NCBI GenBank assembly: GCA_045545665.1
Contig: JAZQBL010000013.1
Span: 81,504-145,503 of the forward strand
Direction of reading: 5' to 3'
Source of the DNA: Eubacteriales bacterium
GTDB taxonomy: Bacteria > Bacillota > Clostridia > Oscillospirales > CAG-272
DNA length: 64,000 bases
Positions 824 through 64,000 of the stretch are shown piece by piece (position 1 is the stretch's first letter; every line of letters starts with the position of its first letter). The translations under genes were made by a program, and so were the position numbers. A model generated the notes under the pieces. That model was not told the origin of the DNA. It searched no databases and was given only the letters and a program-made list of their open reading frames with translations.

Positions 824-2407
824 ATGATATCAACGAACGACGTTTCCTTGCAATACGGCGGCAGAGTGCTTTTTTCGGGTGCGGATCTCGTATTCACAAA
901 AGGCAACTGCTACGGTATTATCGGCGCAAACGGTGCCGGAAAATCCACATTTTTGAAAATACTTTCCGGGGAGGTTGAGCCGTCAAGCGGCACTGTAACG
1001 GTATCCCCCGGCGAAAGAATATCAATCCTAAAGCAGGACCACTTTGCTTTTGACGAATACACCGTAATAAGAACGGTGCTTATGGGAAACCCCGAGCTTT
1101 GCGAGATCGAAGACGAAAAAGAAGCTCTTTATTCGAAGGAAGAAATGACGGACGAGGACGGCATGCGTCTTTGTGAGCTTGAAACAAGATACGCCGAGCT
1201 TGACGGATATTCCGCCGAAAGCGAAGCGGAGATACTTCTGAACGCTCTCGGTATTCCGAACGACCTTCACTACTCTTTGATGAAGGACTTAAACGGCGAT
1301 CAGAAAGTGAAAATACTGCTTGCACAGGCACTTTTCGGTTCTCCCGACATACTTCTTATGGACGAGCCGACGAACCATCTTGATTTAAAAACGATAGCCT
1401 GGCTTGAAGATTTTCTCGTCGATCTGCACAGCGTCGTCATCGTCGTATCGCACGACCGTCACTTTTTAAACAACGTCTGCACGCACACAGTCGACGTTGA
1501 TTTCGGCAAGATAACGATGACAGTCGGCGGCTACGACTTCTGGTATGAATACACTCAGATACGTCAAAGACAGATGAGAGAACAAAACAAAAAAGCCGAG
1601 CTTAAAGCAGCCGAACTTAAAGAATTTATCGCGCGCTTTTCTGCAAACGCTTCGAAATCGAAGCAGGCAACGAGCAGAAAAAAGCTTCTCGACTCGCTCG
1701 ACTTTGCACAAATGCCCGTATCTTCAAGACGTTTTCCGTACGTTGCCTTCAAGCCCGAAAGAGAAGCGGGAAAGGATATGCTTACCGTTGACGGTATAAC
1801 GGCCGAAGTCGGCGGAAAGACGGTTCTTGACAACGTAAGCTTCACTCTGCGTCCGTGCGAAAAGGTCGCTTTCGTAGGCGATCCCGTTTCCATAACAACG
1901 TTTTTCAAGATAATAAGCGGTGAGCTTACACCGTCATCGGGTACATATAAGTGGGGCGTTACGACGTCACAGTCGTATATGCCGTCGGACAACTCCGAAT
2001 ACTTTGACGGACACACCGAAAACCTGATAGACTGGATAAGAAACTGCAGTGATCTCATTTACGAAGCAGACGTAAGGAGCTGGCTTGGCAGAATGCTCTT
2101 TTCCGGTGACGAAGCACTCAAAAGCGTCGGCGTTCTTTCAGGAGGAGAAAGAGTGCGCTGTATGCTTTGCAAAATGATGCTTTCCGGAGCAAACGTTCTC
2201 ATCCTTGACGAACCGACGAACCACCTTGACCTTGAATCCATTGCGGCGCTTAACGACGGACTTATCCGTTATCCGCAAACCGTTCTGTTTACCTCTCACG
2301 ACCACCAGTTCGTACAAACTATAGCAAACAGAATAATTGATCTTACCCCCGGCAGCTTCTACGACAAAGCAACGACGTACGATGAGTATGCCGCGGAAAT
2401 GCTGTAA
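824..2407 (+). CDS. ABC-F family ATPase (two ABC domains, no membrane domain)
   Basis: 527 aa. Walker A GANGAGKST, Walker B LLMDEPTNHLD and LILDEPTNHLD, signature LSGGERVR, charged linker between the domains, no TM segments. Confidence 0.85.
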   Translation: MISTNDVSLQYGGRVLFSGADLVFTKGNCYGIIGANGAGKSTFLKILSGEVEPSSGTVTVSPGERISILKQDHFAFDEYTVIRTVLMGNPELCEIEDEKEALYSKEEMTDEDGMRLCELETRYAELDGYSAESEAEILLNALGIPNDLHYSLMKDLNGDQKVKILLAQALFGSPDILLMDEPTNHLDLKTIAWLEDFLVDLHSVVIVVSHDRHFLNNVCTHTVDVDFGKITMTVGGYDFWYEYTQIRQRQMREQNKKAELKAAELKEFIARFSANASKSKQATSRKKLLDSLDFAQMPVSSRRFPYVAFKPEREAGKDMLTVDGITAEVGGKTVLDNVSFTLRPCEKVAFVGDPVSITTFFKIISGELTPSSGTYKWGVTTSQSYMPSDNSEYFDGHTENLIDWIRNCSDLIYEADVRSWLGRMLFSGDEALKSVGVLSGGERVRCMLCKMMLSGANVLILDEPTNHLDLESIAALNDGLIRYPQTVLFTSHDHQFVQTIANRIIDLTPGSFYDKATTYDEYAAEML

Positions 2408-3284: not shown

Positions 3285-4514
3285 ATGAAAAATTTTTTTT
3301 CCAAAGCAACAGCCCTTTTGATCGTAGCAACACTCATTTTGTGTGCGTTGCCGCTTTCAGCATTCGCAGCAGATGCGAACTGCCCCATCATCTTCCTTCC
3401 CGGTGTAATGGGTAGCCGCCTGTACACGTCCGACAAAGTATTTAACGATTTCACACGCGTTTGGGATCCCTCGATCTTCTTCATCACAAACTTTGCCGAA
3501 CAGCTTAAGACAAAGACACTTTACGCAGCACCTCCCGTAAACGCAAATGACCCCGACGTTAAAAGAGAATACGGTACTTTAGACACTTATAAAAACATCA
3601 TAGACGCTCTTTGCGAAGCATTCCCCGAAAGAGAAGTTTACTTCTTCTCCTACGATTTCAGACAGAGCAACAAGGATTCTGCCGAAAAGCTCAACGCTTT
3701 CATTACAGAATCGGGATTTGACAAGGTCGATCTTATTTCCCACAGTATGGGCGGTCTTGTAGTTGCCAACTACGTTGATATGTTCGGTTTTGACTGTGTC
3801 AACAAGATGGTCTCCTGCGGAACACCTTACATGGGTTCAGCCCAGATGCTCAACATCGCGTTCGGTGAAGATCTTCTTGCTACAAAATACTCCGAAGGAA
3901 TCGAAGGAATACTCCTTCAGATAGCTGACTGCATCGTTTCCGGTCCTTTGGGAGTTGACAGAGAACTCCGCACGTCCCTCCGTGCATGTGCTGAGCTTCT
4001 TCCCTATCAGGCAAGTGTTAAACAAGAGCCGATGATGAAGTACATAGGCAACCAGTCAAGCCTTATCAAGCCGATATTCCTCTATATGCCCACAAGCCTT
4101 AATACGTATAAGACGCTCTGCAACGACCTTTTCGGTGAAGAAATGTACACCGAGGCTTCAGCGGTACAGAACAACCTGTACAAGAACGTATACGGCGATA
4201 TCCTCGCATACGACGGTGCATACTTCGTTGTAGGTGCTGAACAGTCAACGATCAAAACGATATTCTACAGCGGTGAGGGCGACAAGCTTAACGCTGACAG
4301 ACTCAAGCACACATCAGGTGACGACACCGTAACGTTTGAATCTGCAACGATGCTCGGAGCAATGCTTAAGATCGATTCATCACGTTACTGCGTACAGCCG
4401 ACAACACACGGCGGCACGGCAGGCAGTGAAAAGACGGAAGCTTCCGCACTTTGCATTGAATACGTAATAGACGTTCTTGCAGACGGCGTTTCCGACGTTT
4501 CATCCGCAGCATAA
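3285..4514 (+). CDS. secreted alpha/beta-hydrolase, lipase/LCAT-PGAP1-like
   Basis: Signal peptide ending ALPLSAFAADA. N-terminal PIIFLPGVMGSRL and nucleophile elbow SHSMGG, typical of class-2 lipase/LCAT-like esterases. Confidence 0.7.
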   Translation: MKNFFSKATALLIVATLILCALPLSAFAADANCPIIFLPGVMGSRLYTSDKVFNDFTRVWDPSIFFITNFAEQLKTKTLYAAPPVNANDPDVKREYGTLDTYKNIIDALCEAFPEREVYFFSYDFRQSNKDSAEKLNAFITESGFDKVDLISHSMGGLVVANYVDMFGFDCVNKMVSCGTPYMGSAQMLNIAFGEDLLATKYSEGIEGILLQIADCIVSGPLGVDRELRTSLRACAELLPYQASVKQEPMMKYIGNQSSLIKPIFLYMPTSLNTYKTLCNDLFGEEMYTEASAVQNNLYKNVYGDILAYDGAYFVVGAEQSTIKTIFYSGEGDKLNADRLKHTSGDDTVTFESATMLGAMLKIDSSRYCVQPTTHGGTAGSEKTEASALCIEYVIDVLADGVSDVSSAA

Positions 4515-4581
4515 TCAACTTTCGCAAAGCGAAAATATCACGCTGACTTTAGTCAGCATATCACTGAACAGACAAAAAGAA

Positions 4582-4621: not shown

Positions 4622-4765
4622 TTGTTAGTGGGGCACTGCCCGACTGCATTTGTACATACAAATGCGATGCCGGTTCTAACACACTTTGCTTTTATATGTT
4701 AGAATAAAACTTCGCTAACACCATTACACTTTCCTCTGTCGGGGTATTTTCGGTATGATATTACG

Positions 4766-5195: not shown

Positions 5196-6350
5196 TTACT
5201 TTGTTATTTTTTCTATAATTTCAGCAACTCGTTCGCACGCGCGTCCGTCTTCAAAGTTACCGATGTTTTCAAGAAATTCTTCCGCTTTTGCCGTATATTT
5301 TTCCGCTTCCATATTTAAGATGCACTCTGACAGCTCACTGTTTGTAAGCGCATAAGGAAACGGCAGATCTTTTATATCAAAATAGAACCCTCTTTCCGAG
5401 GAAAGATACTTTTCCATATCCGGTACGTACAATACACACGGCATCTTGCGCACCGCCATATCGAACATACACGAGGAATAGTCTGTTATAAGCATATCGC
5501 AGGAAGCGACAAGCTCTTGCATATCGGGATAAAACGTAGCATCGTATGCACCGTTGCAGGGGGGCGTTACCTCCTTTGCGACGTTCGGATGAAGCCTGTA
5601 CATAAACGCCCATTTTTCGTTTGTCTTTTCTTCAAGGGCATCAAGGATGCCTTGTGCATCTATTCCGTGAAGCTCATCACAGTCGCCGTCACGGAAAGTA
5701 GGTGCGTACAAAACCGTCTTTTTTTCTTCATCGAAGCCAAAAAACGAGGAAACTTTCTTTCTTATCGGCAAATTATCTTTGAAAAATATATCGCTCCTCG
5801 GCGTACCGCTGTCAAGCACCTCGCCGTCGTACCAGAACGAATTTTTGAATATATCACTGCTGAATCTGCAGCCCGAGATTATAAGATCGCACTTTTTGGA
5901 ATCTTCTTTTGAATTCAGAACGTAATCCTCTCCAAGCGCCTCGGCGGCATCGCCCTCTATCTTTTTAAGCCGCAAAGAGCTGTGCCAAGTTTGCAGATAA
6001 AACTGACCTTTTCTTTTATTGAAGTAATGGATCTTTCCCGTTCTTATATTTGAAATGATGATCTTTGCGGTTGAAATTTCCTTAAGATACTGTATCGAAA
6101 AATACGGAACGCATCTTACGCCGTCGGGAAGTCCCTCCGGCTTTTTTTTCTGTGAATCGTACACCCATACGATATCGTATTTGCCGGGATACTTTTCGCA
6201 AAGGTATTCCGCAATATATTTCGGACTGTCGCCAAAGCCTTTAAAAACGCTGTTCCATGCAATTATTTTATTCTTTTTTATCGGGTAAAGGCGATAAAGC
6301 GCCATATAAAATTCGTGACGCAACTGTTTTATTTTCGCAAGCATATTCAT
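5196..6350 (-). CDS. CDP-glycerol glycerophosphotransferase (TagB/TagF family)
   Basis: 384 aa. C-terminal LYAPTFRD ... ITDYSSCMFD motifs of the TagF family. Adjacent to tagD. Confidence 0.85.
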   Translation of the reverse strand: MNMLAKIKQLRHEFYMALYRLYPIKKNKIIAWNSVFKGFGDSPKYIAEYLCEKYPGKYDIVWVYDSQKKKPEGLPDGVRCVPYFSIQYLKEISTAKIIISNIRTGKIHYFNKRKGQFYLQTWHSSLRLKKIEGDAAEALGEDYVLNSKEDSKKCDLIISGCRFSSDIFKNSFWYDGEVLDSGTPRSDIFFKDNLPIRKKVSSFFGFDEEKKTVLYAPTFRDGDCDELHGIDAQGILDALEEKTNEKWAFMYRLHPNVAKEVTPPCNGAYDATFYPDMQELVASCDMLITDYSSCMFDMAVRKMPCVLYVPDMEKYLSSERGFYFDIKDLPFPYALTNSELSECILNMEAEKYTAKAEEFLENIGNFEDGRACERVAEIIEKITK

Positions 6351-10115: not shown

Positions 10116-11309
10116 ATGAAAAATACGGAATTTGATTTTAGAAATGTGAAAGAAAACACAGAAGAAAACAGAAAAAAGGGCGCAAAACGTCAGGCGGTAT
10201 ACAAAGCTTTCAAAACGTACGGGATATATCCCTTGACACTTTTTTGTCTTTTGTTCGGATTTATCTTCACGGTCGAAGACGGAATAAGTATGGTTATGAA
10301 AAACATCTCCGTAACAACGTCTCAAGACGTGCAAACGTATCCCGCAGAAGAAGATACCGTCGTGCAGGACACACTCGGCGAAAACAAAGACGTGTTTGAA
10401 TCGCCGTACGTAATGGGGCTTGACGACTCCGAACCGCTTGCCTTTACCGAATATTACTACCTTAACCGTGACGTTCTGCCGGATAATATATACGGCTTCA
10501 ACTACAACCTCGTACCCGAGGGACATCTTGGAATAATCCCGATATCGCTTGCAAAGGATCACGACGGTGAGGAGCTATATATAAAAAACGGTTCTTCTTA
10601 CGATATCGACACAGACGATTATAAAAACTTCACTCTTCCCGAATATGAAGAAACGGACGAATATACCGTTTTGATAGTCCACACCCACGGCACGGAAGCA
10701 TACACCCCGGACGGAGTGCTTTCGGACGATCCCGACGACCCTTATTCCACACGGTCATCCGATAACACGGAAAACGTCGTTTCCGTAGGTGCCGTTATGG
10801 ATGAAATATTTGAAAAAAACGGCATAAAGACTCTGCACTGCGATATTGCGCTCGACACTACCGTGGACGATTACAAAAAGGCATACACAGCAAGTAAAAA
10901 AATAATAAAGGATGCCTTGGATGAGCATCCTTCGATAAAATACGTTTTCGACGTCCACCGTGACGGACTTCTGCTTTCAAGCGGAGAAAAGGCAAAGGTA
11001 ATCTGTGAGGTTGACGGAAAGCTCGCCGCACAGGTAATGTGCGTCGTCGGAACGGACAGCCTCGGTGACGATCACGAAAATTGGGAAGAAAACCTTTCCT
11101 TTGCCCTGCTTTTACAAAGAACTCTTGAAGAAAAATACACCGATCTGTGCCGTCCGTCAAACATCAAGAAAAGCACGTACAATCAGCAGTACACGCCGTA
11201 CAGCTTACTGCTTGAAATGGGTACTGACGGAAACACCCTGGAAGAAGCGCAGTACACAGCCGAAATAGTGGCAAAAGAGCTGTGTCTTCTCATAAAGGGA
11301 GATCAATAG
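10116..11309 (+). CDS. spoIIP: stage II sporulation protein P
   Basis: N-terminal TM segment. VLIVHTHGTEAY and FDVHRDG motifs of the SpoIIP amidase family. Synteny with gpr. Confidence 0.82.
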   Translation: MKNTEFDFRNVKENTEENRKKGAKRQAVYKAFKTYGIYPLTLFCLLFGFIFTVEDGISMVMKNISVTTSQDVQTYPAEEDTVVQDTLGENKDVFESPYVMGLDDSEPLAFTEYYYLNRDVLPDNIYGFNYNLVPEGHLGIIPISLAKDHDGEELYIKNGSSYDIDTDDYKNFTLPEYEETDEYTVLIVHTHGTEAYTPDGVLSDDPDDPYSTRSSDNTENVVSVGAVMDEIFEKNGIKTLHCDIALDTTVDDYKKAYTASKKIIKDALDEHPSIKYVFDVHRDGLLLSSGEKAKVICEVDGKLAAQVMCVVGTDSLGDDHENWEENLSFALLLQRTLEEKYTDLCRPSNIKKSTYNQQYTPYSLLLEMGTDGNTLEEAQYTAEIVAKELCLLIKGDQ

Positions 11310-12564: not shown

Positions 12565-12676
12565 CAATTTATGTCCTGGTAGCTTAAGCAGAGCGTTGAT
12601 TTTCAAAGGTGGCGGTCTGAATCCGTCCGGGGGCAAAAAAAATATTTTTATCCAAATTAAAGCGAGGTAGCAAAAC

Positions 12677-13014: not shown

Positions 13015-13054
13015 TCGGCAGAGATATTACATCTCTGCCGATTTGTGTTATAAT
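13015..13054 (+). promoter_or_regulatory. 11-bp-arm palindrome plus extended -10 (TGTTATAAT); copy of the RAYT-locus module
   Basis: tcggcagagat-attac-atctctgccga (13015-13041), then TGTTATAAT (13046-13054). 23 + 11 nt identical to 63068-63108 in reverse orientation. Confidence 0.55.
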
Positions 13055-13134
13055 AGGACAGTAAAGATCAACGACTGCCGAAGGTTACCCTTTGAAAGTC
13101 AACAGATATAATTCAACCAAAGGAGATAGCTTAT

Positions 13135-44642: not shown

Positions 44643-45141
44643 CTATTCTTCTGAGTATAGTTCATCATAGTACCAACGTATAGGATTTTCATATATGTAC
44701 TTCACGATCTCCTCATAGTCCTCTCGACCTCTGATAATATGATCGTGAAAGCCTCGTTGCCATACGTTTTCACCGTATTCTTTATTGCAAAATCTTTTAA
44801 ATGTCGATACAAAATGTGACACAAATGAGGTCTGTTTTGTAGGGGTCGACGTCCTCGGCGACCCGTCATCGCGAACGAATAACAAAAAATGTATATGGTT
44901 CGGCATAATAACGTATTGATCTACGGTTATATTTTAATAAAATTCATTCATTTGTTTTATATGTTTATCCGCAACGATTCCGTGCGGTAATAATTCCATG
45001 TTTTTCTACAATACGGGATAAGATCTGCCGCCTGCCTTCCGTACACAGCGTTATAAAATACGCTCCCGTTGTGTTATAATCAAAATTTTTTAACCTTGTA
45101 GGCTTCCTTTTCGGTAATTCTTTTTCTTTATCCACATTCAT
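44643..45141 (-). pseudogene. RAYT-type (REP-associated, IS200-like HUH/Y1) transposase, disrupted
   Basis: N-terminal part reads MNVDKEKELPKRKPTRLKNFDYNTTGAYFITLCT... The C-terminal part, in another frame, reads ...PHGIVADKHIKQMNEFY*NITVDQYVIMPNHIHFLL...VWQRGFHDHIIRGREDY...YIYENPIRW. Lesions: one frameshift (about 44965-45000) and an in-frame TAA at 44934-44936. Confidence 0.8.
44838..44864 (+). repeat. TGTAG + GC-rich hairpin (REP-like unit) inside the RAYT coding sequence
   Basis: tgtag-gggtcg-acgtcctcgg-cgaccc. Related units at 54196-54221 (opposite orientation) and 62176-62202. Confidence 0.6.
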
Positions 45142-48933: not shown

Positions 48934-49197
48934 ACAAAAAAATTCCTGTCCGAAATAGGACAAGAATGACTTCCTGCGGTACCACCTAAATTAACGAAAA
49001 AATTCGTTCCCTCTGCCGTACACCGTTATGTACGCACCCTTTTAACGGTAGGTTACCGTCAGCCATTACTCACGTTAGTTTTCCTGCTGCCCTCATAAGC
49101 CCATTCGTCAACCGTTTCGCTGCGGCATTTCACCACACTGCCGCTCTCTGAAAGCTACGCTGACTGACTACTATTCTTAATCAAAGGTTTCAACTAT
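48934..49197 (-). promoter_or_regulatory. T-box leader, probable Trp (UGG) specifier
   Basis: Minus strand has an AGAGA box, a distal-loop GUGUGGUGAAA, cgaaUGGgcuu (UGG at 49101-49103) and AAUUUAGGUGGUACCGCAGG (48973-48992). Terminator cuuguccu/ggacagga + U7. Confidence 0.85.
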
Positions 49198-54195: not shown

Positions 54196-54221
54196 GGTCG
54201 CCGAGGGCGCCGACCACTACA
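54196..54221 (-). repeat. REP-like unit (TGTAG + hairpin, read on the minus strand)
   Basis: The plus strand reads ggtcg-ccgagggcgc-cgacc-actaca. Its reverse complement reads tgtagt-ggtcg...cgacc. Confidence 0.5.
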
Positions 54222-54266: not shown

Positions 54267-54926
54267 TTATACGGGCTGTTGGGACGGTGCTTGTTTTATG
54301 TATTTTTCACAGAGAGAAGAAAGCGGGCAGACTTCACACGCAGGTGAGCGGGAAGAGCATACTTCCCTTCCGAAAAGCACGAGTCTATGGCAAAAATCGG
54401 ACTGCTCTTCGGACTCTACAAGCTCACGAAGTATCCTTTCCGTTTTTTCCGGTGACGATTTTTCGGGACAAAGTCCGAGTCTTGCGCTTATTCTGATACA
54501 GTGTGTATCGGCAACTATTGCAGGCTTATCGTATATATCCCCCAGAATGAGATTGGCAATTTTCCTGCCGACGCCGGGAAGTGTCAGAAGCTCCTCCATC
54601 GTATCGGGCACTTTTGCGCCGTATTCGTTTATTATCCTTTGCGCCATTCCTTTAAGGCTTTGCGCCTTCGTTTTGTAAAGTCCGCAGGAAAATATGAGTT
54701 TTTCAATTTCGGAAAGCTCGGCGTTTGCCATTGCGTACACGTCGGGTATATATTCAAACAGCTTTACGCAGACCTCGTTTACACGAGCATCCGTACACTG
54801 TGCGGACAGTCTGCCCATTACGAGCAGCCGCCAGGGATCTTCATTATACTCCAGCGCACACAATGCCACCGGGTATTTTTCTTTTAATTTTTCCACGCAC
54901 AGCGCGGCTTTTTTCTTTTTATCCAT
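54267..54926 (-). CDS. nth: endonuclease III
   Basis: HhH-GPD LPGVGRKIANLIL, catalytic DTH, and a C-terminal 4Fe-4S cluster Cx6Cx2Cx5C (CSSRSPACEVCPLSSLC). Start at the ATG at 54926 after GGAGA. Confidence 0.9.
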   Translation of the reverse strand: MDKKKKAALCVEKLKEKYPVALCALEYNEDPWRLLVMGRLSAQCTDARVNEVCVKLFEYIPDVYAMANAELSEIEKLIFSCGLYKTKAQSLKGMAQRIINEYGAKVPDTMEELLTLPGVGRKIANLILGDIYDKPAIVADTHCIRISARLGLCPEKSSPEKTERILRELVESEEQSDFCHRLVLFGREVCSSRSPACEVCPLSSLCEKYIKQAPSQQPV

Positions 54927-54960
54927 ATTTTTCTCCATTACGGCATTGTGAAATTCAAGA

Positions 54961-56436
54961 TCACGTCTCAATTTCAAACCAGAAAACAGAGCCTTTTCCT
55001 TCACTGCTTAAAACGCCGTATGTACCGCCGTGAAGCTCAATTACGCCCTTGACTATCGAAAGACCGAGTCCTGTGCCGATGCTTGCGCGTTTATGCGCTT
55101 TATTTTCCTTATAGTATCTGTCCCAGATATTTTTGAAATTTTCTTCCGATATTCCGCATCCCGTATCTTCGACCTCAATACGGACCGTGTTTTCACCCCT
55201 GATCTGTCTTACCGTTACACGTTTATCGTCGCCCGTATAATTTATGGCGTTGTTTATGAGATTGTACACCGCCTGTGATATTTTAAGCTCGTCAGCGTTT
55301 ACCGTTACGTTTTCGCCGTGCTCGAACACTATTTCGTATCCCTCTGCGGCTTTCATTTTCGAATATCTCGATACTATTTCAACTATCGATTCCGTGATAT
55401 CAAATTCCTCTTTATTCAAGGAATCCATTCCCGATTCTATTTTTGACAGCGAGAGTATATCGTTTACGAGTCTGCGGAGATGCTCCGCCTCGTCTATTAT
55501 GACCTGCACGTTTTCGGGTGTATTTTCTCCCGGTATATCGCGCATTACCTCACCGTATCCCATTATCATCGTAAGAGGTGTACGCAGGTCGTGGGAGACG
55601 TTTGCAATAAGCTCACGTCTTAAGCCGTCAACCTTTGAAAGCTCCCCTGCGGCATAGTTCAGCGTATCGGAAAGCTCCTCTGTCTCCTTGAAGCCCTCGC
55701 CGTTGAAGTCTGCCCCGTAATTACCGTCGGCAAGCTTTTTTGCGGATTCGTTTATCCTTACTATAGGTGTTGACAGCTTTCTTGAAATATAAAGTCCGCC
55801 ACAGACTGCTATTATTATGAAAATAATGCTCATCACCGTAAGCTGATTCGTTATTGTTTTTACCGTGGAATCAACGGGTTCAAGCTCTGCGCTCACCATT
55901 ATGTAAGCTTTTCTGCCGTCAAGCATATACGTTGATATGCTGTATATAAAGCTTTGTATCTTCTCTTCCGTGACCGCGTTGTCGTTTTTATCGGGACGTC
56001 CGAAAAACGGCGGCGGATCCGTGTCGTGTATTTTTATCTTCTCGGTATGCCGTCCGAAATATTCTCCGCCCTCTTCTTCCGTTTTATATACGTAATAGCG
56101 TACCGTATCGTCATTTTTGAGTATACTGCCGTAGGATACGGTCTGTATATAATTCAGCACGCCGTTACCTTCAAAAAGCACCTTTATATCGACCGATCTT
56201 TCATCTGCCTGTGCATCGACCGTATCGGTTATATTTTCGGAATTTATATTTTCTTTTACCGTTTGCGCTGCTTTTATTATTTCTTTGTGGACTGCCGTTT
56301 CATAGAAGAAGTCAAGCAAAACCACCTGAAATATCCAGACAGTCAGCAAAAGCATTGCGGCAAACACCATAGTGTATACGGTTATTTTTGTTCTTATCTT
56401 GCCTTGTTTTTTCGGTTTGGAGCTTTCTGTGACCAT
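54961..56436 (-). CDS. sensor histidine kinase (2 TM, HAMP, HisKA, HATPase_c)
   Basis: H-box ANVSHDLRTPLT, N-box NLINNAINYT, G-boxes DTGCGI and GTGLGLSI. Confidence 0.87.
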   Translation of the reverse strand: MVTESSKPKKQGKIRTKITVYTMVFAAMLLLTVWIFQVVLLDFFYETAVHKEIIKAAQTVKENINSENITDTVDAQADERSVDIKVLFEGNGVLNYIQTVSYGSILKNDDTVRYYVYKTEEEGGEYFGRHTEKIKIHDTDPPPFFGRPDKNDNAVTEEKIQSFIYSISTYMLDGRKAYIMVSAELEPVDSTVKTITNQLTVMSIIFIIIAVCGGLYISRKLSTPIVRINESAKKLADGNYGADFNGEGFKETEELSDTLNYAAGELSKVDGLRRELIANVSHDLRTPLTMIMGYGEVMRDIPGENTPENVQVIIDEAEHLRRLVNDILSLSKIESGMDSLNKEEFDITESIVEIVSRYSKMKAAEGYEIVFEHGENVTVNADELKISQAVYNLINNAINYTGDDKRVTVRQIRGENTVRIEVEDTGCGISEENFKNIWDRYYKENKAHKRASIGTGLGLSIVKGVIELHGGTYGVLSSEGKGSVFWFEIET

Positions 56437-60766: not shown

Positions 60767-62119
60767 ATGGCATTTTTTACTAAAGAAAGATCTTTTTATA
60801 AGACGTTTATATCTCTTTGGGGCGTTCTTGTTTTAAACAACGTCATCGTCCTCGGAGTAAACCTTGCCGACAACATTATGCTCGGCGCATACAGCGAGCC
60901 TGCCTTATCGGGGGCAGCCGCATGTAATCAGCTTCAATTTATATTTCAGCAGGTGATATTCGGTCTCGGTAACACCGCCGTGCTTTTAGGCAGTCAGTAC
61001 TGGGGAGAAAAAAAGCTGAAGCCTATAAAAAATATAGCCGCATCGGCTCTTATTTGCGGTGTGCTGTTTTCGCTTGTACTGTTTATATTGACGTCCGCTT
61101 TTCCGTATCAGACGGTCGGAATATTCACGAAATCAGAGGTCATAAAGCAGCAGGGTGTCGAATATCTTTCCGTAATAAAGTACACGTATCCCGTATTTGC
61201 CGTAACGAACATACTGCTTGCCTGCCTGCGCTCGGTTGAAAGCGTGAAGATAGGCTTCCGTGTTTCCGTTATGACTCTTATCGTCAACATCTCGCTCAAC
61301 TACGTGCTCATTTTCGGAAAGCTCGGGTTTGAGCCTATGGGTGCAAAAGGTGCGGCAACAGCGACGCTCATTTCAAGAATTGCCGAGCTTTTGTTCGTCG
61401 TCATCCACATAATGTTCATAGAAAAGAACCTGAGGCTGTCCTTTGGCGATATGGTAAAGACAGACCTGTCGTTGTTTAAAAAATATGCGCTGTCGTCCGT
61501 GCCGTTCGTGCTTACCGACGGACTTTTCGGCGTTTCCACCGCTTTACAGACCGTTATTCTCGGTCATATGTCAGATGCGGCAATAGCGGCAAATTCCGTA
61601 TCAACAACGCTTTACCAGGTGTTGAAGGTTGCGGCGATAGGCTCGTCCGCCGCCTCCGCCGTCATAATCGGCAAAAGCATCGGACAAGGCAAAAGCCTTG
61701 ATAAGATAAAGGAATATTCAAGGTCACTGCAGGTCATATACGTCGGTGTCGGACTTGCCACGTCCGTTTTGCTTTTCTTACTCCGCACACCGATAATAAG
61801 CCTTTACAATATTTCAAGCGAGGCTGTAAGCCTTGCCGACGGATTTTTACTCGTTCTGTGCGTAACGTGCATCGGTACGGCATATCAGATGCCGACGAAC
61901 ACGGGTATCGTGCGCGGCGGCGGAGATTCGAAATTCGTATTGAAGCTCGATATCGTCGCCATCTGGTGCATAGTTTTACCTCTTTCGTTCTGTGCGGCAT
62001 TCCGCTGGCACTGGCATCCCATCGCCGTAATTGCGTGCCTTAACGCCGACCAGGTGTTCAAGTGCCTGCCCGTTTTCATCAAAGCAAACAGCTATAATTG
62101 GGTAAAAAAGCTTACTTGA
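60767..62119 (+). CDS. MATE family efflux transporter
   Basis: 450 aa with 12 predicted TM helices. Typical MATE N-terminus (LWGVLVLNNVIVLGVNLADNIMLG). Confidence 0.85.
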   Translation: MAFFTKERSFYKTFISLWGVLVLNNVIVLGVNLADNIMLGAYSEPALSGAAACNQLQFIFQQVIFGLGNTAVLLGSQYWGEKKLKPIKNIAASALICGVLFSLVLFILTSAFPYQTVGIFTKSEVIKQQGVEYLSVIKYTYPVFAVTNILLACLRSVESVKIGFRVSVMTLIVNISLNYVLIFGKLGFEPMGAKGAATATLISRIAELLFVVIHIMFIEKNLRLSFGDMVKTDLSLFKKYALSSVPFVLTDGLFGVSTALQTVILGHMSDAAIAANSVSTTLYQVLKVAAIGSSAASAVIIGKSIGQGKSLDKIKEYSRSLQVIYVGVGLATSVLLFLLRTPIISLYNISSEAVSLADGFLLVLCVTCIGTAYQMPTNTGIVRGGGDSKFVLKLDIVAIWCIVLPLSFCAAFRWHWHPIAVIACLNADQVFKCLPVFIKANSYNWVKKLT

Positions 62120-62175
62120 CAAGATAAAAAAGCAAGAATAAAGCGGACTTCTCATAAGGAAGTTTAATTTCTCCT

Positions 62176-62202
62176 TGTAGGGACAGGCGTCCTCGACTGT
62201 CC
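62176..62202 (+). repeat. REP-like unit (TGTAG + hairpin with a compensated stem)
   Basis: tgtag-ggacag-gcgtcctcga-ctgtcc. Same loop core and flanking TGTAG as 44838-44864, but a different, fully complementary stem. Confidence 0.55.
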
Positions 62203-62239
62203 GTTAAGATATATTTGCGCCGCAGAATACAAAGAGTAT

Positions 62240-62268
62240 CCCGGACAGATTTTCAAGGTCTGTCCGGG
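62240..62268. terminator. hairpin between the convergent MATE gene and the 62.3-kb gene
   Basis: Perfect 10-bp stem cccggacaga / tctgtccggg with a 9-nt loop. Weak T-tracts on both sides. Confidence 0.5.
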
Positions 62269-62300
62269 TTCTCATATCATTAAAAAGCCAAAACACGATA

Positions 62301-62909
62301 TCATTGGTTTGTGTTGATAATATTTGCAATCTCTGATATCAAATGTTCTTTTGAGGTCAACACGCCCTTAACTGCAAATTTCTTTTTGTTAATTATTACA
62401 ATAGTGCAATTCGTCTGAAATTTTAATACAATTCTTTTGGTTTTGTTTCTGCAAACGGCTCGAAATTTTCCATAAAACTTTCCACCGCCTATAAAAATGT
62501 ACCCCGTTACTTCTTTCTTTGTATAACGGGTTAACTGATCGAAAAATTCAGCATAACTACCAAGGAATATATCATGTAATACAGAACAATATACGCTATT
62601 TTTGCAGTAGGTCAAATAGAGAAATTCAATCTTTAAAATAGAGAAATCTGTGATATATGATTGTAACAAAAAGCAAAGGATTGCAATTGGTATAGCAACC
62701 CATAATTCACGTTCAAAGCACATGGGAATCCAACATAACAACAAAATCAAATACTGGAATATAATAAATATTTTGCGTCCAAACTTTGATGTAAGACCTT
62801 GTCCTTTGCGCCACGCTTCTTCACGTTCTTTTTTGCCCCAAATTATCTTGTCAGAAAAAAAGCGATTTGTTCTATTATAGTATTCGATATAAAAATCTTT
62901 TCTTTGCAT
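62301..62909 (-). CDS. hypothetical membrane protein, AT-rich orphan gene
   Basis: 202 aa. AGGAGGA RBS. Two TM helices (IFIIFQYLILLLCWIPMCF and WVAIPIAILCFLLQSYI). No family recognised. Sits directly downstream of the gene-less RAYT-element derivative. Confidence 0.5.
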   Translation of the reverse strand: MQRKDFYIEYYNRTNRFFSDKIIWGKKEREEAWRKGQGLTSKFGRKIFIIFQYLILLLCWIPMCFERELWVAIPIAILCFLLQSYITDFSILKIEFLYLTYCKNSVYCSVLHDIFLGSYAEFFDQLTRYTKKEVTGYIFIGGGKFYGKFRAVCRNKTKRIVLKFQTNCTIVIINKKKFAVKGVLTSKEHLISEIANIINTNQ

Positions 62910-63149: not shown

Positions 63150-63207
63150 AAAGGAAAAACTTTTATTCTTGCTTTTTGTTTCAACGCAGCCGTACGGTTG
63201 CGTTTTT

Positions 63208-64000
63208 TTATACTTTTACTATTCCGAATGCTTCCAGAACGGAGAAGATGAGTATGAAAACGATGCAAACGGGTGCTATATATTTTATAACTACCGTAAA
63301 GAGCTTGCGTGCTTTGAATGCTCCGCCGATCTCCGCTTCCTCGATTATTGCCTTAGGCTTGATGACGTAACCGATGAATATACACGTTGCAAGTGCAACT
63401 ATCGGCATAAGAACACTGTTGCTTGCAAAATCAAATAACGTGAGGAAATCCATTCCGATAAGCTTTATTCCGCTCCATATACCGTTACCGAGCGAGGACG
63501 GAACGCCGAACACGATGCATATGCCCAAAACGATGAAGCAAGCCGTTTTTCTCTTTATACCGAATTTATCGGTGAATATCGAAACAACCGTTTCCATAAG
63601 AGAAATCGAGGACGTAAGTGCGGCAAAAAGTACGAGCAGGAAGAAGGCAACGCCGATCATCTCGCCGCCCTTCATTGAGTCAAACACCTTCGGGAGCGTT
63701 ACGAACATAAGTCCGCGACCTTTGTTAAGCGCCTCGGCACTGCCGCCCGAAAAAGCAAATACACCGGGAACTATCATAAGTCCCGCAAGAAATGCTATGC
63801 CTGTGTCAAATATCTCTATCTGTCTTACGGATGATTCGATATTGACGTCCTTTTTCATATACGAGCCGTACGTTATCATAATGCCCATTGCAAGTGACAT
63901 CGAATAGAACAGCTGTCCCATTGCGGCAAGCACCGTGATTATTGAAAACTGTGAAAAGTCGGGCTTTATGTAGTAGATAACGCCTTCCCAAGCGCCGTCC
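63208..64000 (-). CDS. sodium-dependent transporter, NSS (SNF) family; N-terminal part outside the window
   Basis: The frame stays open to the window edge upstream of the track's Met (DGAWEGVIYYIKPDFSQFSIITVLAAMGQLFYSMSLAMGIMITYGSY, an NSS signature). Confidence 0.85.
   Translation of the reverse strand, partial: DGAWEGVIYYIKPDFSQFSIITVLAAMGQLFYSMSLAMGIMITYGSYMKKDVNIESSVRQIEIFDTGIAFLAGLMIVPGVFAFSGGSAEALNKGRGLMFVTLPKVFDSMKGGEMIGVAFFLLVLFAALTSSISLMETVVSIFTDKFGIKRKTACFIVLGICIVFGVPSSLGNGIWSGIKLIGMDFLTLFDFASNSVLMPIVALATCIFIGYVIKPKAIIEEAEIGGAFKARKLFTVVIKYIAPVCIVFILIFSVLEAFGIVKV

Follow-up and report, generated by a model that had tools for sequence, protein, structure and literature searches.

The 64,000-nt stretch analyzed here (hereafter the window; contig JAZQBL010000013.1 of a Eubacteriales bacterium) contains three short hairpin units that are very probably GTAG-type repetitive extragenic palindromes (REPs) of Oscillospirales-type Clostridia. 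Their cognate enzyme, by the same assessment, is a REP-associated tyrosine transposase (RAYT, or TnpA_REP) of subclass 2.4, also known as group 4, that carries REPs in frame within its own gene. The REP unit is 26 to 27 nt long and consists of a pyrimidine with GTAG (Y-GTAG), a 6-bp stem of free sequence, a purine-purine (R.R) mismatch, a CG/CG helix, a YCCT tetraloop, and a 3′ G. Two of the units in the window are extragenic, and the third lies inside a RAYT pseudogene.

Three GTAG hairpins in the window

A first-pass annotation of the window had read three dispersed hairpin units headed by TGTAG, and we recovered all of them with the same coordinates and sequences. The 62-kb unit (62176..62202, plus strand) reads TGTAG-GGACAG-gcgtcctcga-CTGTCC, and the degenerate 54-kb unit (54196..54221, minus strand) reads TGTAGT-GGTCG-gcgccctcgg-CGACC. 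The 44.8-kb unit, inside the pseudogene at a position that we term site B (44838..44864, plus strand), reads TGTAG-GGGTCG-acgtcctcgg-CGACCC. We searched the window with a degenerate pattern, GTAGNGNNNGRCGYCCTCGRCNNNC, which fixes GTAG, two stem pairs, and the loop core while leaving four stem pairs free. Even with two mismatches permitted, the pattern matched exactly these three sites, and it found nothing in 100 dinucleotide shuffles of the window, so that no match would be expected by chance. Folded as single-stranded DNA (ssDNA), the units share a 6-bp stem (5 bp in the 54-kb copy), a 1x1 R.R mismatch, CG/CG, and a YCCT tetraloop, with energies of −8.7 to −9.9 kcal/mol and z scores of −3.2 to −4.4. 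The palindromic body, which in REPs spans 20 to 40 nt, measures 22 nt here (6 bp, the 1x1 mismatch, 2 bp, and the 4-nt loop) and has a “stem, irregularity, stem” architecture. GTAG abuts the stem in the 44.8- and 62-kb units and stands 1 nt off in the 54-kb unit; the REP rule is 0 to 2 nt.

A covariance model for these units, as the first-pass annotation had proposed, was built from 113 family members with the three window units included in the training set, and it was run unfiltered. It scored the 62-kb, 44.8-kb, and 54-kb units at 48.6, 46, and 37.3 bits, respectively (37 to 49 bits overall), with the next best site at 11 bits and nothing comparable elsewhere in the window. A loop-deleted fourth copy had been suspected at about 4626-4645. 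This candidate was rejected, as it has TTAG rather than GTAG, folds with a z score of −1.56, and gave no model match at E ≤ 10. The TGTAG motif, previously called conserved, held for GTAG but not for the leading T, which reflects a pyrimidine preference (T in 60 and C in 44 of 110 units among the matches listed, a scope that applies to the unit counts given throughout). By the same counts, the G after the 3′ stem is conserved too (96/110 units). Rfam gave no match at the units or in the adjoining conserved noncoding blocks.

Both extragenic units sit just past a gene, co-oriented with it and between convergent open reading frames (ORFs). The 62-kb unit is 57 nt 3′ of the stop codon of a MATE-like ORF (60767..62119, plus strand), and the 54-kb unit is 46 nt 3′ of the stop codon of an endonuclease-III-like ORF (54267..55004, minus strand). 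Sites downstream of ORFs and between convergent genes are a REP placement that has already been reported (PMC3733652). The 54-kb copy has lost its basal pair, and its G...G loop ends occur in none of the 110 other units among the matches listed.

The RAYT pseudogene

The 44.8-kb unit lies within a RAYT reading frame, as the first-pass annotation had stated, and there encodes GSPRTSTPT. The gene (44643..45141, minus strand) has the frame of a Y1 HuH/Tyr enzyme, with an NHIH motif (H-I-H at 44897-44889, minus strand), WQ within VWQRGFHDH, and YIYENP, whose catalytic Tyr is at 44699-44697 (minus strand). The residue preceding NP is E, and the subclass 2.4 consensus YIxNNP is otherwise matched. 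NF047646 (REP_Tyr_transpos) was the sole NCBIfam match for the window fragment and for intact orthologs, and the Escherichia coli TnpA_REP structure 4ER8 was the sole PDB match by sequence (E = 1.1e-8). In the 4ER8 alignment, the E. coli GTAG-contact residues W94, Q95, H101, and R104 line up with the same amino acids, and Asp takes the place of E100. An intact homolog modeled with AlphaFold at modest quality (pLDDT 66) had 4ER8_A as its top Foldseek match (E = 2.4e-7, TM 0.55-0.57), which outranked the IS200, IS608, and ISDra2 transposases. Judged by its motifs, following Quentin et al. 2018 (PMC6006769), the window gene is a subclass 2.4 RAYT, i.e., group 4 of Bertels.

We used the intact copy in locus L208, about 95% identical in nucleotides, as the reference for lesions. 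Relative to L208, the window gene lacks 23 nt, namely, the 22-nt hairpin of a second embedded unit (site A) plus one flanking G (GGGCCGACGTCCTCGGCGGCCC in L208). The junction reads GTAG followed directly by AAAAAC (GTAG and the first A at 45005..45009, minus strand), and this loss causes a frameshift. In addition, an in-frame TAA stop (44934..44936, minus strand) replaces a GAA (Glu) codon of the intact ortholog. Thus, the site A deletion and the new stop make the window gene a pseudogene. We considered whether a RAYT had made the deletion itself and rejected the idea, as its ends (after GTA/GTAG and after CCC/CCCG) are unlike the CT/CA cleavage sites of TnpA_REP (PMC8266576). For this single case, an origin by slippage over the hairpin is no less likely.

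REPs embedded in intact homologs

From 5463 proteins that a search for RAYT homologs gave (E ≤ 0.001), we examined the best 120 clusters. All of these carry two peptides, VG.D.L..P and G..RTS.PT, and hence two embedded units. VGVDVLGDP is GTAGGGGTCGACGTCCTCGGCGACCC read forward, after beta1, while GSPRTSTPT is its reverse complement, after the HuH strand. In the DNA of intact homologs, this corresponds to two identical 26-nt units, inverted and 142 nt apart. Site A, whose GTAG is on the coding strand, falls between beta1 and alphaA, and site B, whose GTAG is on the opposite strand, follows the HuH strand and precedes the next helix. Peptide variants are paired within a protein, e.g., VGGDVLDAP with GASRTSPPT and VGDDVLGVP with GTPRTSSPT, and the two variable residues of the forward peptide are encoded by reverse-complement codon pairs, as the hairpin requires. 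By these sequence comparisons, the two embedded arms evolve in concert.

This arrangement extends to distant relatives. Among 80 metagenomic RAYT relatives of 30 to 67% identity, embedded GTAG hairpins number two in 48 genes, one in 22, and none in 10. They lie near nt 126 (plus) and near nt 297 (minus), and the only exceptions are the double-foot units in L205 and L207. The REP sequence at those sites differs by lineage (GGGCGAAC-tgt, GGGCGGAT-atc, GGAACGGT-cttg, and GGGACGGG-cttg), and the embedded type often flanks the same gene as well (e.g., L139, L145, L177, L181, and L202). When aligned codons for the same amino acid were compared, 86% were identical in the embedded units, versus 47% in the rest of the gene. 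In the model mentioned above (pLDDT 66), both embedded peptides map to loops of low confidence that separate core elements.

Long-range pairing of one arm with the other was rejected as the selected feature. In L208, L032, L134, and L139, the arms differ in stem and each stays self-complementary, which places the selection on each hairpin rather than on an inter-arm duplex. In four homologs (P0018, P0087, P0098, and P0017), the segment encoded by the site A REP is duplicated or expanded in frame, e.g., VGGDVPDAPKNVELLPHENVGGDVLDAP; such expansions indicate that the embedded unit undergoes local duplication.

It is possible, though we rate it at well below even chances, that the embedded REPs are themselves selected. 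They would then form an intragenic inverted doublet (REPIN-like) around the HuH-coding segment, which could serve as a heritable master copy that renews extragenic REPs or as a cis site for sensing, regulation, or disabling of the gene by its own enzyme. Several findings fit such a role without proving it. The sites and their orientation are fixed across lineages in which the REP sequence has wholly changed, synonymous codon identity is 86% versus 47%, and the arms evolve in concert. A compensatory stem change is found even between copies that are about 95% identical, and the window gene was killed by the loss of exactly one embedded hairpin. The view of passive insertion in the literature is hard to square with fixed sites and synonymous constraint.

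A repeat family with covarying stems

The wider family was sampled with one pattern scan of species-representative genomes, which returned at least 120 stretches; matches were sorted by record title. At least 110 units came from Bacillota, from metagenome-assembled genomes (MAGs) as well as isolates. Most belong to Oscillospiraceae and Acutalibacteraceae, with others from Ruminococcus, Gemmiger, Monoglobus, and Faecousia. Gemmiger formicilis ATCC 27749 and Ruminococcus flavefaciens ATCC 19208 are among the isolates with matches. The four free stem pairs were complementary at all four positions in 103 of 110 Bacillota units and at three in the other 7, with 17 stem types among the matches listed. 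Matches in other, mostly high-GC phyla paired at zero to two of four positions in 22 of 29 cases, as chance predicts, and at three or four in 7 of 29, including L015, L043, L065, and L113. Perfectly paired units occur in contigs binned outside Bacillota, namely, L113 (Kiritimatiellaeota MAG, with an inverted unit pair), L065 (Opitutales MAG), L043 (Bacteroides MAG), and L015. These could reflect horizontal transfer or mis-binned contigs.

The first-pass annotation had predicted that stems would covary while GTAG and the loop stay fixed, and the stems bear this out (the fixed parts are taken up below). In an alignment of 113 units among the matches listed, 99.3% of stem cells were paired, and three stem pairs had changed on both sides. 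Double-change cells numbered 133, versus 33 ± 4 in shuffles, with a covariation score of 0.42 versus 0.09. When the partner columns were slid as a control, pairing fell to 30-54%.

The stem of the 62-kb unit had itself been read as a case of covariation. That both stems are complementary was correct, but a local compensatory event is not what separates them. The 44.8- and 62-kb units represent two established REP stem types, and each type is found inside the genes of a separate RAYT lineage. That of the 62-kb unit, GGACAG/gcgtcctcga, occurs within the RAYT genes of L128, L132, and L037 and sits just upstream of the intact RAYT ortholog in L208, and copies identical to the 62-kb unit make up 11 of the 110 Bacillota units among the matches listed. 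Genuine compensatory changes are seen between homologous copies, both for the 62-kb unit (GGACAG/CTGTCC versus GGACCG/CGGTCC in L041) and for window site B (GGGTCG/CGACCC versus GGGTTG/CAACCC in L208).

Inverted REP pairs with spacers of 25 to 113 nt occur in about 10 related loci among the matches listed. Two loci show further arrangements. L042 has three tandem REPs with a 63-nt period (4419-4570, minus strand), and L120 has REPs at 1377-1402 (minus), 1516-1541 (plus), and 6247-6272 (plus), with identical longer flanks at two places. These arrays may be larger composite repeats that carry REPs. The 12-mers spanning loop and stem of the unit were found in no relevant paper of the literature.

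Observations that weigh against the assignment

Several observations count against reading these units as the REPs of a subclass 2.4 RAYT. The published REP descriptor, an RNAMotif rule (PMC6006769), specifies a basal stem of 7 to 20 fully paired nt that is topped either by a loop of 2 to 5 nt or, past a bulge of 1 to 3 nt, by a second stem; at 6 bp, the basal stem here is one below that range. NF047646 scored intact orthologs at 62.7, 69.8, and 80.8 bits against a cutoff of 80 (the window fragment scored 52), and PF01797 scored intact orthologs at 21.7-25.4 bits against a cutoff of 23. In the window and in L001, L004, and L006, REPs do not flank the RAYT gene over a range of 5-10 kb, so that a REPtron arrangement is absent. 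Furthermore, because GTAG and the loop were set by the search pattern, their lack of variation among the 110 units is in part built in, and their constancy in this sample proves nothing. RAYT lineages at a greater distance have a different loop and, indeed, a different REP altogether.

Copy density is also low. The window has only 2 extragenic units per 64 kb, and loci totaling about 145 kb, most of them selected on grounds other than REPs, had 4 units, one of which (L208) is beside a RAYT gene. These densities suggest that a genome has tens rather than hundreds of REP copies. The usual criterion for REPs is a high copy number, often above 100 in a genome.

Finally, a clean presence/absence polymorphism was not found at either of two sites. 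At the orthologous site downstream of jag, the intergenic DNA that follows the gene in contigs of the closest Jag homologs (94-84% identity) is unrelated. At the site upstream of RAYT, the boundaries are unclear at the divergence involved. There, the motif CTCATAAGGATGTTT abuts a promoter-hairpin module (described below) in L001, and a REP stands between the two in L208 and L041, which is only suggestive of an empty site.

The conserved block around the 62-kb unit

Besides the 62-kb REP, a 123-nt noncoding block (62148-62270) contains a CTCATAAGGAAGTTT motif, a conserved spacer, and a terminator-like hairpin. This block is 84% identical to L041 7335-7212, and the neighboring genes differ. Besides the REP stem, the terminator-like hairpin is a second compensatory site relative to L041 (CCCGGACAGA/TCTGTCCGGG, 62240-62268). 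By this sequence comparison, the 62-kb REP has long been retained at its site. A motif, CTCATAAGGAWGTTT, precedes REPs in L208 and at L041 6382 as well.

Such conservation raises the alternative that the units are host RNA elements, i.e., stabilizing hairpins of 3′ untranslated regions, parts of terminators, or protein-binding sites, that are locally selected independently of any transposase, the RAYT copies being coincidental. The 123-nt block, with compensatory changes in both the REP and the neighboring hairpin, would fit this, as would the placement of both extragenic window units about 50 nt past a stop codon, in sense orientation and between convergent genes; in E. coli, REPs influence mRNA stability (PMC3733652). 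No U-tract terminator, however, was called at either extragenic site. The GTAG is strand asymmetric, the units have a fixed embedding in a family of GTAG-reading enzymes, and the embedded and flanking REP types agree across many lineages, all of which argues for a tie to the transposase. We therefore consider a transposase-independent RNA element unlikely. An RNA role and a tie to RAYT are compatible with each other.

Other palindromes around the RAYT gene

Two other palindromic modules lie near the pseudogene. The first, a promoter-hairpin module, consists of TTTCGGCAGAGA-N7-TCTCTGCCGA followed by an extended −10 box (TTTGTGTTATAAT). In the window it precedes the RAYT pseudogene and two unrelated genes (45198-45152 and 63114-63068, both minus strand, and 13017-13055, plus strand). 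It also precedes RAYT in L001, L208, L131, L056, and L137 and is present in L041, while it is absent upstream of RAYT in L004 and L006. The second module, GGCTTTGC..GCCTTTGTAATACAAAGGCnAAAC, has one copy just past the RAYT stop codon (44635-44599, minus strand) and another in the 5′ leader of the ORF at 62909..62301 (63000-62964, minus strand). It also lies 3′ of RAYT in L001, L131, L135, and L208 and has no Rfam match. In window 63114-62952 and in L041 6444-6731, both modules are joined by 70 to 190 nt of GC-rich hairpins, ahead of unrelated genes.

The RAYT-like gene and its flanking palindromes (TCGGCAGAGA..TCTCTGCCGA upstream, GCCTTTGTAATACAAAGGC downstream) might instead be an insertion sequence of the IS200/IS605 kind, with the GTAG hairpins as unrelated passengers. 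That both palindromes recur without the gene at 63114-62964, that one recurs at 13017-13055, and that they flank RAYT genes in L001, L208, L131, and L135 would suit a mobile element. Even so, no such upstream palindrome precedes RAYT in L004 or L006, and the RAYT gene of L006 begins 1 nt past the ORF before it. With an extended −10 box (TGTGTTATAAT) at its end, the upstream element looks like a promoter module. The protein has the motifs of class 2 RAYTs (Y...NP and WQ) and not the Y...Q of IS200 (PMC6006769), and the gene is single in every contig seen. An insertion sequence is thus a highly improbable explanation.

Several further elements were noted. In L005, an element of about 200 nt, rich in hairpins, lies 3′ of RAYT as a tandem duplicate (10630-11030), and it is single in L004, from the same species. 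Its core, GGGAGCTGTCGCAGAGCGACTGAGGGA, resembles part of the L041 leader. Rfam matches in the window were a T-box leader (129 bits; 48953-49193, minus strand) and a weak tRNA (30 bits, just above the gathering score; 12573-12635, plus strand), both unrelated to the REPs. A match to a CRISPR direct repeat at 63205-63240 (minus strand) was below threshold (25.8 bits, E = 0.012; gathering score, 50). Only one copy is present, and the match probably reflects chance.

Extragenic copies are not gene debris

The first-pass annotation had left room for the units being tiny gene remnants. With the 26-nt unit masked, we found no RAYT similarity in the flanks of either extragenic window unit. Across the family, RAYT-like flanks (E ≤ 0.01) were found for 7 of 113 units among the matches listed, and all 7 lie inside recognizable RAYT genes, leaving 106 outside. 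A frame of at least 150 codons spanned 38% of the units, versus 88% of random positions. The RAYT-embedded share of the Bacillota pattern matches was about 6%, for an extragenic-to-embedded ratio of about 15:1 among the matches listed, and extragenic copies therefore exceed gene copies some 10-fold across the collection.

Descent of the extragenic units from decayed RAYT genes, as remnants of the segments encoding VGVDVLGDP or GSPRTSTPT, would account for their related translated peptides, for the decay of the window RAYT itself, and for embedded and extragenic units being one sequence family; yet it is extremely unlikely given the masked flanks, the mutually unrelated flanks of units of the same stem type, and the excess of extragenic units.

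A proposed model for recognition and spread

By analogy with the TnpA_REP enzymes of E. coli, Stenotrophomonas maltophilia, and Marinomonas, for which strand-specific binding and cleavage of REP ssDNA have been described (PMC8266576), we propose that the intact enzyme would bind the folded hairpin on one (top) DNA strand. TnpA_REP reads GTAG plus loop or irregular bases in a strand-specific manner (Corneloup et al. 2021, PMC8266576). Here, it would read GTAG together with the unpaired or irregular bases, which would be the invariant mismatch and the loop, and contact the lower stem without sequence preference. Such nonspecific contact could explain why the stem is free to covary. The enzyme may then cut and rejoin ssDNA nearby, so that copies are spread or maintained. 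Copies would settle about 50 nt past stop codons, where they may double as 3′ RNA hairpins. Because the local enzyme gene is dead, the extragenic units in the window are probably relics, one of them degenerate and the other of a stem type matching a different RAYT lineage.

REP-RAYT systems have so far been studied almost only in Proteobacteria. Here, a GTAG-REP family and its group 4/subclass 2.4 RAYT are found across abundant gut and rumen Clostridia, in Oscillospiraceae, Acutalibacteraceae, Ruminococcus, and Gemmiger. The recognition logic appears legible from the sequences, with GTAG, mismatch, and loop invariant and the lower stem freely covarying. The units also explain annotation oddities, i.e., the peptides VGxDVLxxP and GxxRTSxPT in “transposase” genes and spurious small ORFs across intergenic hairpins. 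Since the embedded REPs are paired, inverted, and constrained at the nucleotide level, it becomes possible to test directly why RAYTs of this subclass retain REPs within their coding region.

Comparison with known systems

The GTAG REPs of Di Nocera et al. 2013 (PMC3733652) resemble ours in occurring as singletons and as HH/TT dimers, in their sites downstream of ORFs or between convergent genes, and in occasional in-frame intragenic copies. Unlike here, their intragenic REPs are mostly in DNA replication and repair genes and not in RAYT, and the text mentions neither Firmicutes nor Clostridia.

The E. coli REP/TnpA_REP system (RayT, YafM; group 2, subclass 2.2) shares the 5′ GTAG, an imperfect palindrome with an internal irregularity, the HuH/Tyr ssDNA enzyme fold (Foldseek E = 2.4e-7), and extragenic REPs downstream of genes. 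However, E. coli REPs are about 35 nt long, exist in hundreds of copies, and form BIMEs (bacterial interspersed mosaic elements). In E. coli, REPs flank the RAYT gene but do not occur within it, and the segment of about 10 residues encoded at site B is absent from the E. coli protein (a gap in the 4ER8 alignment). Of the two systems, E. coli is the one with demonstrated activity. The REPIN-RAYT systems of Bertels and Rainey (groups 2 and 3) are similar in their inverted REP pairs, seen here in related loci and in the embedded inverted doublet, and in a single-copy, vertically kept RAYT. They differ in that the extragenic window units are singletons and the 142-nt spacer of the embedded doublet encodes the HuH motif.

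The closest match is subclass 2.4, which is unique in having REPs inserted within tnpA_REP genes with the frame intact, in regions modeled as peripheral (Quentin, Siguier, Chandler, and Fichant 2018, PMC6006769). It corresponds to Bertels group 4, with a low gene copy number and flanking 16-mers that are moderately repeated, at about 14 occurrences (PMC5581495). Our family shares the HuH motif NH[IFV]H (NHIH in the window), WQ, and Y...NP, canonical GT[AG]G REPs with a G-C rich stem base, in-frame REP insertions in the beta1:alphaA and beta3:alphaC regions, and a low gene copy number with moderately repeated cognate sequences. Unlike the subclass 2.4 examples, the window copy is a pseudogene. 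The hosts here are Oscillospirales Clostridia, whereas PMC6006769 stresses Cyanobacteria and Bacteroidetes and Bertels has Clostridia in group 1 only. REPs inside their own gene are already described for this transposase subclass (PMC6006769), and the window case is a further example. Two units at fixed sites on either side of the HuH motif, inverted and usually identical (48 of 80 relatives have both), go beyond the subclass 2.4 account. Taken together, the Clostridial host clade, the two fixed inverted sites flanking HuH, the concerted arms, and the nucleotide constraint on embedded units appear to be additions to what those texts describe.

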